A stretch of DNA of 64,000 nt from an uncultured Candidatus Saccharibacteria bacterium (GTDB taxonomy: Bacteria; Patescibacteriota; Minisyncoccia; Phycocordibacterales; DAORIS01). Both the position numbers and the translations under genes were made by a program. Below the pieces are notes generated by a model. The model was not told the origin of the DNA and did no database searches. It saw only the letters and a program-made list of their open reading frames with translations. Of this stretch, positions 50,986 through 55,038 are shown piece after piece. Position 1 is the stretch's first letter; each line of letters begins with the position of its first letter. The stretch covers positions 104,881 through 168,880 of the forward strand of contig CAZXUH010000002.1 of NCBI GenBank assembly GCA_964644035.1. The letters are read 5' to 3'.

Positions 50986-53224
50986 GTTCAAGTAAGACAT
51001 GGTCTTTGACAACTGAATCCTGCGACAATACTCAAACTCAAAATTTGAAATGGTGTCGAACACCGTATTGGACGCAGATTGAATTGATTGTAGGTAATTG
51101 AAGTTATATAAAATTTTCTCCTTGTCAGGCTAGTAACTTGGCGAGGGGGTCTTTCATTTTATGTAACAGGATAAAGTAGAATATAAGATTGTGGTTCTTA
51201 CATTTCCTAATAAGGAAATTAAGGGCATATGGTGGATGCCTTGACTCTACATGGCGATGAAGGACGCAGCATGGCGGCGATACGCTTCGGGGAGGTGCCT
51301 AGCAACCTTTGATCCGAAGATGTCCGAATGGGGTAACCCCTCTGTTAATCAGAGACGTACGCACATTAGCGTACGTGCATACCCAGGGAAGTAAAACATT
51401 TCAGTACCTGGAGGAATAGAAACCAATTGGTATTTCCTTAGTAGCGGCGAGCGAAAAGGAAGAAGCTCAAACTCAGCTCTCAACTTTGTTATTGGAGATT
51501 TATTTTTCCAATTCAAAGTTGATAGCTGGGGGTTGTAAGGTAGCAGCGTGATTTTTAAAATCAGAAAAGTTACAAAACAAATTGTTAGAAGAACAACCTG
51601 GAAAGGTTGACCATAGTGGGTAATAGTCCCGTATTTGAAAATAATTTGTCTTTTCAGTTGTTATTCTTGAGTACTTCGAGACACGAGTGGCTCGGAGGAA
51701 TCTGCCGGAACTAACCGGTAAAGCTAAATACATGTAGAGATCGATAGTGAACTAGTACCGTGAGGGAAAGGTGAAAAGAAGCCCGGAAGGGCAGTGAAAT
51801 AGAACTGAAACCATATGTCTACAAGGAGTCGATGCGGGTATTTATATCCGCTACGGCGTGCCTATTGAAGAATGAGCCAACGAGTTGATGCATAGTGTAC
51901 GCTAAGGGCGAGAGCCTGGAGCGATAGGGAAACCGAGTGTTAATAGCGCGCCTATACTATTCATCAGACCCGAAACCAGAGCGAGCTAATTATGAGCAGG
52001 GTGAACTTCAGAGAAATCTGGAGGGAGGCCCGAACGGTTGAGCCGTGCAATACTCTCCGATGACTTGTGATTAGAAGTGAAAAGCTAACCGAGCCTGGTA
52101 ATAGCTGGTTCTCTCCGAAATAGCTTTTGGGCTAGCGTCATGTGTTCCCCTCGGGGGTAGAGCACTGGAAGGTCTCGACAGGGAGAAATCTCGCGAGACC
52201 TATCAAACTCCGAATACCGAGGATTAAAAGCGTGGCAGTTAGACTGTGGGGGCTAAGCTCCATTGGTCAAAAGGGAAACAGCCCGGATCTCAATTTAAGG
52301 TCCCTAAATCTATGCTAAGTGCACTTAAGGTAGTGTTTCGTCTATGACACTGAGGATGTTGGCTTAGAAGCAGCCATCATTTAAAGAAAGCGTAACAGCT
52401 CACTCAGTAAGACGCGATGCGCCGAAGATAATCGGGGCTAAGCATAGTACCGAAACTGAGGATTGTACATTTTTTCGAATTTGTACACTGGTAGGAGAGT
52501 TTTCTTGTCTGCGATGAAGGCAAAGGGGTGACCCATGCTGGAGCGTCAAGAAGTAAGAATGTTGGCACAAGTAACCACAAGGTTTGTGAAAACCAAACCC
52601 GCCGAAAGAACAAGGTTTCCTTCGCGATGACAATCAGCGAAGGGTAAGTCGGGCCTAAGGCAATGACGAGAGTCGCAGCCGATGGACACACGGTTAATAT
52701 TCCGTGACTTTTATTGCAAGTGATGGGAGGACGGAGTGTAGTATGTATCGCGCATTATTGGATTTGACGTTCGTGTTCTGAGTGTGGCTTCCTGGCAAAT
52801 CCGGAAGCGGCCGCAAGGCGCACACAAGGAAAGCGAAAATGCTCAGGGCTTGCTCTGAGTAAATGATACAAAGCACGCTTCCAAGAAAAGTCTCTAAACT
52901 TATTGTAATGAAAACCGTACCGCAAACCGACACAGGTGTTCAGCTCGAGTAGAGCAAGGCGAACGGGTGAGGGGTCTCCAAGGAACTCGGCAAAAAAGCA
53001 GCCGTAACTTCGGAATAAGGCTTGCCTTCAGCAATGAAGGCCGCAGCTAAAGTATGCTTGGCAACTGTTTATCAAAAACACAGCTCCCTGCGAACTCGCA
53101 AGAGGATGTATAGGGGGTGACACTTGACCAATGCCAGAAGGTCAAACGTTGGCGGTGAGATTATATCAAGCTGACTGATGTAAGCCCTGGTGAATGTCGG
53201 CCGTAACTATAACGGTCCTAAGGT

Positions 53225-53536
53225 TCTCTGTTGATACAGGTGTAAATATCTGGATGAACAGAGAAGGATTGGGGCTGTTATATGTTTGTGAATTGATAAC
53301 AAAAGGAGCCGTAATATGTCATAGAAAGAGGAATTAATTAAAAACGCTACCCTTCATGAGTGATCATGAAGTCCAAAACTGACTGTATGTGTACAATCTA
53401 CTTAAGATTGCTACGCAGGAAAGACTCGAATATTCGAAAGAATGATCGAGAATCCCCAGAGACCAGACGTCAGGCTAGATCGCAAGGTCTAGTAAGAAAG
53501 AGTCCATACTCAATAGCAATATTGAGCTTATAATAG
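53225..53536 (+). other. ORF-less group I intron in 23S rRNA at E. coli position L1931 (312 nt)
   Basis: Interrupts GGTCCTAAGGT|AGCGAAATTCC. The 5' exon ends in U and the intron ends in G. R-like (CAGAGACCAG) and S-like (AAGAAAGAGTCC) core elements are present. Confidence 0.7.
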
Positions 53537-54199
53537 AGCGAAATTCCTTGTCAGGTAAGTTCTGACGCGCACGAATAGTGTAATGACTGAGCAACTGTCT
53601 CGGAGACTCGCCCGGTGAAAATACAATACCGGTGAAGATGCCGGTTACCTGCAGATAGACGAAAAGACCCTAGAAGCTTTACTACAACTTGGTATTGAGC
53701 GTATGTTTTTACTGCGTAGCATAGAGGTGAGACTTTGAAGTTTCGTTTTCGGATGAAATGGAGTCGTCAGTGAAATAGCCTTCTGTCAAAATATACGTTC
53801 TAACCTCGAGGGAAAAAACCGCGAGAGACAGTATCTGGTGGGTAGTTTTAGTGGGGCGCTATCCTCCTAAAAAGTAACGGAGGAGTTTATTAAGGTCAGC
53901 TAACCGCGAATGGAAACCGTGGTAATAGTGTAATGGCACAAGCTGGCTTAACTGTAAGACGTACTTGTCGAGCAGATGCGAAAGCAGAACATAGTGAACC
54001 GACCATACGCGTTAGATGCGGTGGAAGATTATCGGACAAAAGCTACTCTAGGGATAACAGGCTGGTACTGCCTAAGAGTCCATATCGACGGCAGTGTTCG
54101 GCACCTCGATGTCGGCTCATCTTATCCTGGGGGCGGAGAAGCTCCCAAGGGTTTGGCTGTTCGCCAATTAAAAAGATACGCGAGCTGGGTTCAGACCGT

Positions 54200-54649
54200 T
54201 AAGGAGCTATTTAGATTGCTTCTTAAAAACAGTATTTTCGAAATGCACGCATAATTTTCTGTTGAAAATTTGCTCCTGCTCGGCCTCACGGCCTGTGCAA
54301 GGCATTTCTCAAACATGTTTTTAAGTTGTATAAATAGCGGCTCTTTAACAGTCTGAATCCCGAGGAAACTTTCACTAAACGTATTTCATGCATATTCATT
54401 TATGCGAGTACGTGATACCCAGAAGAAAGTCTGTTACTAACCATATTCACGGCGGTTATTCGAAGTAATTCGTATAACTCAAAACACAACTAATATCGGT
54501 AAAACCCGGGAGGGCAATACCGAGAGAACTCACAAATTTATTTTGTGAGGCTCGTAGAGACTAAACGTTGTGCTCCTCTGATTTCTATTAATATGAAGTT
54601 TGAGGATGAAGCTATAGTCCAATGCCCGGAGCAATCTGGGAAAAACATG
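54200..54649 (+). other. ORF-less group I intron in 23S rRNA at E. coli position L2593 (450 nt)
   Basis: Interrupts AGACCGT|CGTGAGACAG. The intron ends in G. R-like (GTAGAGACTAAA) and S-like (GAAGCTATAGTCC) core elements are present. Confidence 0.7.
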
Positions 54650-55038
54650 CGTGAGACAGGTTGGTCTCCTATCTACTGCAGGCGTTGATTCTTGAGGAGA
54701 TTTGTCTTTAGTACGAGAGGACCGAGATGAACTGACCTCTGGTCTGGGAGCTCTGCCGCCAGGTGGACCGCTCCGTAGCTATGTCAGGCACAGATAACCT
54801 CTGAATGCATCTAAGAGGGAAGCTGTCTCCAAGATGAGGAATCGTTTAGACTCCTGAGAGATGATCAGGTTGATAGGCACTAGGTGTACGCATAGTAATA
54901 TGTTGAGCCGAGGTGTACTAATAAGTCGATTCTTATTAGGAAATGTGTGAATTACATCTTACGTTAGAACTTTATCCTGTTACATGGAATGAAATTCCAT
55001 GAGAGACAGTATTTACAATCAATTTAGTATTTGAATTT

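Follow-up and report, generated by a model that had tools for sequence, protein, structure and literature searches.

What accounts for the extra length of an oversized bacterial 23S ribosomal RNA (rRNA) gene, and is it removed before the RNA serves in the ribosome? The question is raised by a 64,000-nucleotide (nt) stretch of DNA from an uncultured bacterium (contig CAZXUH010000002.1, positions 104,881 to 168,880), hereafter the window, whose 23S rRNA gene is interrupted by two insertions. A preliminary description, made from the letters of this DNA, had taken them for group I introns without open reading frames (ORFs). Here, we compared the gene with its counterparts in Escherichia coli and in related genomes, and we conclude that the two are group I introns of the 23S rRNA, compact and without ORFs, which are likely removed by the ordinary two-step, guanosine-initiated ribozyme reaction. 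ORF-less group I introns in the 23S rRNA, with 1931 and 2593 among the known sites, are a pattern already documented for hundreds of genomes from the candidate phyla radiation (CPR).

Insertion sites in the 23S rRNA gene

A complete bacterial 23S rRNA was found at window positions 51209-54939 of the + strand (as are the other rRNA and intron features of the window given below), with 2262.8 bits against Rfam RF02541 (LSU_rRNA_bacteria, model positions 1-2925). The gene measures 3731 nt, matching the ~3.73 kb described previously, and 2969 nt once both introns are removed, in line with the ~2.9 kb expected, with ~100 extra nt in domain I being offset elsewhere. BLAST comparison with the E. coli 23S rRNA gave colinear blocks with two gaps between them, as E. 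coli has 0 bases opposite window positions 53225-53536 (312 bases) and again 0 opposite 54200-54649 (450 bases). The breakpoints lie between 1945 and 1946 and between 2607 and 2608 of the 2918-nt E. coli rrl copy. Subtracting a 14-nt offset would place them at U1931 and U2593 in the 2904-nt numbering, as first described and in agreement with the published site names. The two insertions are therefore called L1931 (intron 1) and L2593 (intron 2).

Insertion 1 is flanked by GGTCCTAAGGT and AGCGAAATTCC, and insertion 2 by TTCAGACCGT and CGTGAGACAG. Shifting either boundary would break universally conserved rRNA sequence, and with the boundaries fixed by these flanks, the earlier observation that both insertions follow a U and end in a G holds. 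The predicted ligated junction at L1931 reads CCUAAGGU joined to AGCGAAAUUCC. The insertion sites fall in the H69-H71 region (L1931) and in the peptidyl-transferase loop (L2593). Position 1931 is part of the subunit interface, flanked there by H69 and H71.

The proposed absence of a homing-endonuclease gene was borne out. The longest stop-to-stop frames are 57 codons in intron 1 and 62 codons in intron 2, the longest ORF being 57 amino acids, and ten scanned frames of at least 36 codons from both introns had no Pfam match at E<=1. Neither intron contained an ORF for a homing endonuclease (LAGLIDADG, GIY-YIG, HNH, His-Cys) or a maturase, and with no endonuclease, we propose that both are immobile and vertically inherited.

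Group I assignment and covariation in relatives

At the Rfam gathering thresholds, only the 23S and 5S rRNAs were detected in the whole window, so that the group I call needed searches in E-value mode together with comparative work. In a 1.5-kb search, RF00028 (Intron_gpI) matched intron 2 at 54435-54641 (39.4 bits, E 3.7e-8) and intron 1 at 53290-53526 (26.5 bits, E 2.8e-4), each over the whole model (positions 1-253). The Infernal search proposed in the preliminary description thus returned full-length matches for both introns, while the gathering score of 50 bits was missed by both. No group II family appeared in the Rfam scan of positions 53150-54720 at E<=10.

Relatives of the window were collected through its FtsW protein (56639-57811), whose best identity, 66%, was to proteins of metagenome-assembled genomes (MAGs) labelled Paceibacterota, Parcubacteria, Nomurabacteria, Taylorbacteria and Zambryskibacteria. 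By way of FtsW we fetched 80 loci (designated by L and three digits below), and because the order 23S-5S-VWA protein-FtsW is conserved, these included the 23S genes of relatives. The host is a Paceibacteria-type CPR bacterium, which agrees with the CPR origin presumed at the outset. An insertion at L2593 was present in 43 of 45 related 23S genes (including that of the metagenomic contig L081), with lengths of 271-828 nt, and one at L1931 in 16 of 25, with lengths of 200-429 nt. L081 was the only contig returned by a metagenome scan with the L1931 core pattern. It carries both insertions at the same sites, and its exons are 97-100% identical to those of the window while its introns are only ~80% identical, with the differences compensated, a signature of selection on structure. 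The organism of the window was also found in Logan assemblies SRR14271331/32/35/59/60/61 by exact look-up of the HAD-like and FtsW proteins, in contigs that end at the rRNA gene; the VWA ORF as delimited gave no exact-protein record.

For L2593, we aligned 15 sequences from the shorter introns of the family. Unguided RNAalifold recovered P10, P2, P3, P4, P5, P6/P6a, P8 and P9, with compensatory changes in 29 of 42 pairs. With the P7 pseudoknot added, 95.8% of the alignment cells were paired, versus 31-41% for slid partners, and double changes occurred in 30 of 48 pairs, a count reached by 0 of 500 shuffles. The L1931 family is made of divergent subfamilies, two of which were misaligned by MAFFT in four full-size introns, and its covariation was measured on the close trio of the window, L081 and L001. 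In this trio, 97.4% of cells were paired (36-40% when slid), and double changes were seen in 16 of 80 pairs, distributed across P2, P3, P4/P5, P8 and P9. Minimum free energy folds of both window introns gave the same hairpins, with z-scores of -4.9 and -6.5.

The core of intron 2 (54457-54640), supported by the RF00028 match, the fold and covariation, comprises P2 (54457-64/54469-76, GUAA loop), P3 (54485-90/54567-72), P4 (54496-501/54518-23), P5 (54505-07/54512-14), P6 (54524-26/54551-53), P6a (54529-36/54542-49), P7 (54557,54559-63/54615-20), P8 (54574-78/54602-06) and P9 (54625-30/54635-40, GCAA loop). That of intron 1 (53352-53526), drawn from the fold and covariation, has P2 (53352-59/53364-71, GUGA loop), P3 (53379-83/53469-73), P4 (53388-93/53412-17), P5 (53394-99/53405-10), P6 (53418-19/53454-55), P6a (53425-29/53446-50), P7 (53459,53461-63/53502-05), P8 (53475-81/53486-92, GCAA loop) and P9 (53509-15/53520-26, GCAA loop). 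Hence, both introns have P3 to P9 in the canonical order with the P3/P7 pseudoknot, maintained by compensatory changes. P7 is formed by GAGAC(C/U) with (G/U)AGUCC, invariant in relatives, and in both introns a G-C pair lies beside a bulged A in P7 (the guanosine-binding site) and the terminal guanosine, omega-G, is present (G53536 and G54649). It is because of the significant, full-length matches below threshold, together with this covariation in relatives of both families, that we uphold the group I nature of the two insertions.

Exon recognition and a proposed mechanism

Directly 5' of the GNRA-capped P2, both introns carry a guide whose sequence is complementary to that of the ligated exons. 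In intron 2, the guide CACG-G-CGGU (CACGGCGGU, 54448-54456) matches the 3' exon CGUG (54650-53) for P10 and the 5' exon ACCGU (54195-99) for P1, with the wobble pair U54199.G54452 exactly at the cleavage site, and J4/5, the segment joining P4 and P5, is A-rich. The L2593 intron is therefore canonical at its splice site and in J4/5. Its guide motif CACGGCGG was found in 44 of 44 relatives with at most one change. In intron 1, the guide CGCU-A-CC (53345-53351) matches AGCG (53537-53540) for P10 and GGU (53222-53224) for P1, and GCU[A/G]CC was present in all 16 L1931 copies (GCUACC in 14, GCUGCC in 2). A long hairpin running through the 5' splice site, with a U-A pair at the cleavage position, was also considered as P1. 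We rejected it and preferred the guide beside P2, which is complementary to both exons and places the wobble correctly. Since the pairing with the 3' exon (P10) is useful only for ligation and is strictly conserved, we infer that both introns are still spliced.

With only 3-5 bp, P1 is short. Upstream of the guide, a second intron segment is complementary to the 5' exon. In intron 2, GUCUGAA (54351-54357) pairs with exon UUCAGAC (54190-54196) in 7 of 7 positions. Exons with ...CAGAC are accompanied by UCUGAA in 36 of 36 relatives and those with ...CAAAC by UUUGAA in 8 of 8, so that covariation between the segment and exon position -6 is perfect (36 G:C and 8 A:U). The near-identical pair L070 and L075 differs at both positions, which argues that this covariation does not go back to a single inherited event. 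In intron 1, a hairpin starting at +1 (UCUCUGUU.../...AACAGAGA, 53225-53264), variable among relatives, is followed at 53265-53275 by the linker AGGA and the segment UUGGGGC (53269-53275). In 7 of 7 positions, this segment pairs with exon GUCCUAA (53215-53221). This pairing is kept in all 16 L1931 copies, the sole variation being A or G opposite U.

The same layout was seen in a third intron family of the relatives, at ~L2449 (after ...GGGGCGCUAUCCU; L001 788-1038, L025 307-990, L028 1230-1740), with a hairpin at +1, GGCGCC facing exon GGCGCU, and the guide AGGGGGA. This site is empty in the 23S gene of the window. Families inserted at ~L2500 and ~L2656 in relatives have a classical long P1. 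As a separate observation, locus L046 has an intron with a LAGLIDADG-like ORF after GTAACTATAA.

From these pairings we propose that a short P1 would be complemented by the second segment, which follows the variable +1 hairpin and would hold the next 6-7 exon nucleotides upstream of P1. By stacking on P1, this two-part grip would prevent the 2-kb 5' exon from leaving its position after the first step and before the second. Splicing would restore the conserved H69-H71 junction and the peptidyl-transferase loop. For L1931, the first step is probably slower, or takes place with help from the additional exon pairing or from a protein. A broader and quite tentative possibility is that the introns of Paceibacteria form a group I lineage whose guide for the 5' exon is split, made of a minimal 3-5 bp P1 and an upstream, pseudoknotted, coaxially stacked second segment, common to L1931, L2449 and L2593. 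In the L1931 branch this guide might have permitted the loss of the otherwise near-universal U.G wobble together with the J4/5 that receives it, and relatives might also have lost the whole of P4-P6 in this way. If true, such introns would correspond in nature to the engineered 'minimal catalytic domain' ribozymes.

Variable and conserved modules of the introns

Intron 2 begins with a long hairpin from +1/+2 (54200-54349; stems 54201-07/54340-46, 54208-13/54331-36 and 54222-31/54316-25), a hypervariable module. In L081, its place is taken by an 89-nt hairpin with 46% identity and no relation to it, despite exons that are 97-100% identical. The presence of an unrelated hairpin at the same place indicates that the 5' hairpin is a tolerant, swappable module, which explains why intron 2 is 450 nt long and not about 270-300 nt. 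The second exon-binding segment follows and then a connecting domain (54358-54447) with a stem (54368-73/54425-30), a hairpin (54380-54412) and the conserved CUGUUAC (54431-37). The motif CUGUUA is common to this part of the L2593 family (54431-54437) and to the 53276-53344 stretch of intron 1. Pairing of CUGUUA with an AACAG linker was tried and dismissed, as it holds in some L2593 introns and not in all.

The tip of the intron 2 hairpin contains a nested Y-shaped dispersed repeat of ~80 nt (54235-54314; 87 bits with R1, a covariance model built from seven copies). A long closing stem leads into GCACGCAUAA, then a hairpin of 5 bp with UGYU as its loop, then UUUGCUCC and one more hairpin. Covariation is seen in the inner hairpin (UUUUC/GAAAA, AUCGC/GCGAU, AACCC/GGGUU). 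Across 1.05 Mb of related DNA, R1 detected 15 copies, which occur in either orientation and are mostly intergenic. The repeat sits in the same hairpin of L008 (6606-6687, +) and, in reversed orientation, in L064 (6101-6180, -) and L032 (1128-1207, -), and otherwise in short intergenic spacers of Paceibacteria genomes. Further copies include L006 2482-2559 (+) and 3926-4003 (-), L039 5073-5152 (-), L069 3210-3286 (-), L014 12206-12285 (-) and 2442-2519 (+), and L030 2472-2546 (-). Rfam had no match for this repeat, which looks like an element of the repetitive extragenic palindrome or miniature inverted-repeat transposable element type, or an unknown small structured RNA. The L2593 intron would thus have acquired a dispersed intergenic repeat within its tolerant 5' hairpin.

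Other inserts were observed in the introns of relatives. Hairpins that have repetitive arms and end in the palindromic loop AAUGCAUUUGCAUU occupy several peripheral loops (5' hairpin, L6, L8, L9), in L2593 introns of L039 (195-689, three copies), L051, L056, L062 and L072, and resemble another family of small elements that insert into intron loops and colonise them. The P6 loop holds inserts of 150-330 nt bounded by inverted repeats (e.g., GUUUGUGAAYUUCAUAG...CUAUGAARUUCAUAAAC) in the introns L008 6579-7406, L018 6563-7140, L028 2075-2622, L064 6069-6624 and L071 680-1330. In an Rfam search of the L008 insert, only the intron itself was matched. The L071 insert, with halves resembling a D-arm and a T-arm, was considered as a tRNA and discarded, since ARAGORN calls none.

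In intron 1, the stretch between the exon-binding segment and the guide (53276-53344; 202-270 in L081, also in L001), CUGUUAU...GUCAUAGAAAGAGGAAUUAAUUAAAAA, is almost invariant, while the neighbouring helices vary with compensation. Possible roles for it are a tertiary contact or a site bound by a protein.

Alternative explanations

Several observations weigh against the conclusion that both insertions are introns excised by their own ribozyme. Both scored below the Rfam gathering score for Intron_gpI (39.4 and 26.5 versus 50 bits), splicing itself is inferred from conserved pairings, the pseudoknotted P1-domain geometry of the two-part grip was argued by hand, and the conserved motifs CUGUUA and GAAUCC..GAGG have no assigned role in the proposed mechanism. 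Likewise, the single-copy status of the 23S gene is taken from what is usual in CPR bacteria in general and not from this genome. The most serious departures concern L1931. Helices and guide are present in both introns, as the preliminary description foresaw for the fold, but in L1931 the splice-site U53224 faces A53349 and not the near-universal G, and P4 runs directly into P5, leaving no J4/5 loop. J4/5 is the usual receptor of the splice-site wobble pair. Another register would give a U.G pair between U53224 and G53346, with a weaker P1 of 3 bp and no P10. The U-A pair is shared by 14 of 16 family members. The L1931 introns of L029 (6138-6415) and L019 (4751-5179) have a U.G pair, an A-rich J4/5, a terminal A (omega-A) and a fully paired P7 (UGGUCC). 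Moreover, in 11 relatives the L1931 insertion measures 200-250 nt and lacks P4-P6 (L020 991-1190, L006 6415-6631, L032 219-437, L064 5186-5404, L073 7494-7713, L027 5186-5407, L018 4807-5029, L011 5076-5302, L008 4932-5162, L028 662-900 and L052 6571-6818), with only 12-18 nt from J2/3 (P3) to P7. These short versions keep the guide, P2, P3, P7, P8, P9 and omega-G, with covariation in P2, P3, P8 and P9, and could represent either group I introns of a naturally minimal form or relics. Taken together, the missing U.G pair and J4/5 and the loss of P4-P6 in relatives make autonomous ribozyme activity of the L1931 family doubtful.

Could the L1931 insertion, and possibly both, then be a degenerate group I relic that is never excised and stays in the mature 23S rRNA as an expansion segment? 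Its U-A pair, the absent J4/5 loop, the 11 versions without P4-P6 and an Rfam score of just 26.5 bits would fit, and the title of Everett et al. 1999, as cited in PMC11270868, reports an unspliced L1931 intron in Simkania negevensis. Yet the guide is exactly complementary to both exons in 16 of 16 divergent copies, the terminal G is kept in 14 of 16 and the guanosine-site pair of P7 is invariant, features that would not be maintained in a mere expansion segment. A 312-nt insert at 1931 in the only rRNA copy would also be hard to tolerate. We consider such retention improbable, and plausible for L1931 only. Somewhat less remote, and still unlikely in our view, is that the introns are spliced with the help of a host or trans-acting protein (a maturase, a chaperone, or an endonuclease-maturase encoded elsewhere) needed for folding or for selection of the 5' splice site. 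The very small peripheral domains (no P5abc, no P7.1/7.2), the lost wobble receptor of L1931 and the near-identical single-stranded stretch 53276-53344 in the window, L081 and L001, which could bind a protein, speak for it. Against this, no candidate protein was identified, neither intron encodes an endonuclease or maturase, and the GNRA loops on P2 and P9 of both introns (and on P8 of intron 1) suggest tertiary bracing by RNA only.

If the insertions were instead intervening sequences of the RNase III type, they would be cut out without ligation and leave a fragmented 23S rRNA, an outcome that the preliminary description had named as one that would refute it. Fragmented 23S rRNAs are known in bacteria, this type has been suggested for some CPR insertions (PMC11270868), and intron 2 does begin with a long 150-nt hairpin. 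That hairpin, however, is a variable module that is absent or replaced in relatives, the ends of each insertion do not pair together in the folds, both insertions hold a complete group I core with covariation, and they occupy classical group I sites and not the H9, H25 or H45 sites of intervening sequences (PMC11270868, PMC1995217), all of which makes this explanation very improbable. An assembly chimera or binning artefact is harder still to credit and can be practically set aside: short-read contigs of the same organism do break at the rRNA gene, but the independent contig L081 has the two introns inserted at exactly the same positions, dozens of MAGs produced by different studies contain homologous introns, and the exon flanks are complete and colinear.

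Genomic setting

The 23S gene is followed by a 5S rRNA gene (55044-55152, RF00001, 71 bits). No 16S rRNA or tRNA gene was found in the whole 64-kb window, and a 23S-5S pair standing alone over this distance indicates that the rRNA operon is unlinked. The surrounding genes are ordinary bacterial genes. Elsewhere in the window, the gene at 20420-23863 (+) encodes a class I aminoacyl-tRNA synthetase of 1147 amino acids (tRNA-synt_1 and Anticodon_1) in which a histidine-phosphatase domain (His_Phos_1, residues 503-657) is inserted in the middle of the catalytic domain. Within the 23S gene, domain I (51470-51719) is the part that exceeds its E. coli counterpart by ~100 nt, and it includes a near-perfect hairpin of ~56 nt (51474-51531, CAGCUCUCAACUUUG...CAAAGUUGAUAGCUG), variable or absent in relatives, where the BLAST alignment breaks at rrn 264/321. 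This hairpin may be an expansion segment or a short insertion of the intervening-sequence type.

Consequences for the ribosome and for annotation

If both introns are spliced, the mature rRNA requires two splicing events. It is reasonable to think that the organism would depend on them for ribosome function, because CPR bacteria usually have one rRNA copy per genome (PMC11270868) and because the introns sit at H69-H71 and in the peptidyl-transferase loop. For annotation, the 23S gene should be delimited at 3.7 kb, and probes or primers spanning 1931 or 2593 will fail. Should the structural details hold, the two-part exon grip, supported by covariation, would be relevant to RNA specialists. The L1931 intron would then be one that retains its guide, P10, omega-G and guanosine site without the U.G wobble, and its P4-P6-less, still covarying relatives would be natural experiments on the minimal group I core.

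Comparison with known introns

Group I introns lying within 23S rRNA genes from the CPR were reportedly described by Brown et al. in 2015. Coxiella burnetii is likewise said (Raghavan et al., 2007) to hold two group I introns near H69-H71 of one 23S rRNA, Cbu.L1917 and Cbu.L1951. In one of these the canonical omega-G is reportedly missing, a trait shared with the L1931 introns of L029 and L019, although the sites differ (1917 and 1951). The use of two intron segments that pair with adjacent stretches of the 5' exon recalls the exon-binding sites EBS1 and EBS2 of group II introns with their intron-binding partners IBS1 and IBS2. This is an analogy only, since group II introns are a different ribozyme class with a different chemistry, and no homology is implied.

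The closest match is the survey of Tsurumaki et al. (2024, PMC11270868), in which 82% of 348 CPR 23S genes carried insertions, 968 in total. Of these, 433 were assigned to group I by the Rfam model, 222 of them ORF-less, and the recurrent sites included 1931 and 2593. Insertions of this kind were reported to be removed from CPR transcripts (PMC11270868). The window resembles the surveyed genes in its Parcubacteria/Paceibacteria host, its sites, the ORF-less class and its Rfam matches below the gathering score (PMC11270868), and departs from them in no essential point. The survey gives no secondary structures, and the short P1 with a second segment, the U-A pair and the nested repeat are apparently not covered in it.

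Outside the CPR, the L1931 and L2593 introns of Thermotoga, Simkania and cyanobacteria all encode LAGLIDADG enzymes (Haugen et al., 2007, PMC1995217). The L1931 introns of Thermotoga, Simkania and Synechococcus are, like that of the window, group I introns inserted after U1931, but they are 650-700 nt long, IC1-like, with a single-motif LAGLIDADG enzyme, a complex P5 and no P2 (PMC1995217), whereas the L1931 intron of the window has 312 nt, no ORF, a GNRA-looped P2, a minimal P4-P5 and a U-A splice site. At L2593, the introns of Synechococcus, Thermosynechococcus and the Chlamydomonas Cr.LSU (I-CreI) share with the window a group I insertion after U2593, a short P5 and a P2. These bacterial and plastid introns carry a P7.1/P7.2 extension of ~65 nt and a LAGLIDADG gene (PMC1995217), while the L2593 intron of the window passes from P7 to P3' in 3 nt, has no ORF, and places a 250-nt 5' domain before its guide.

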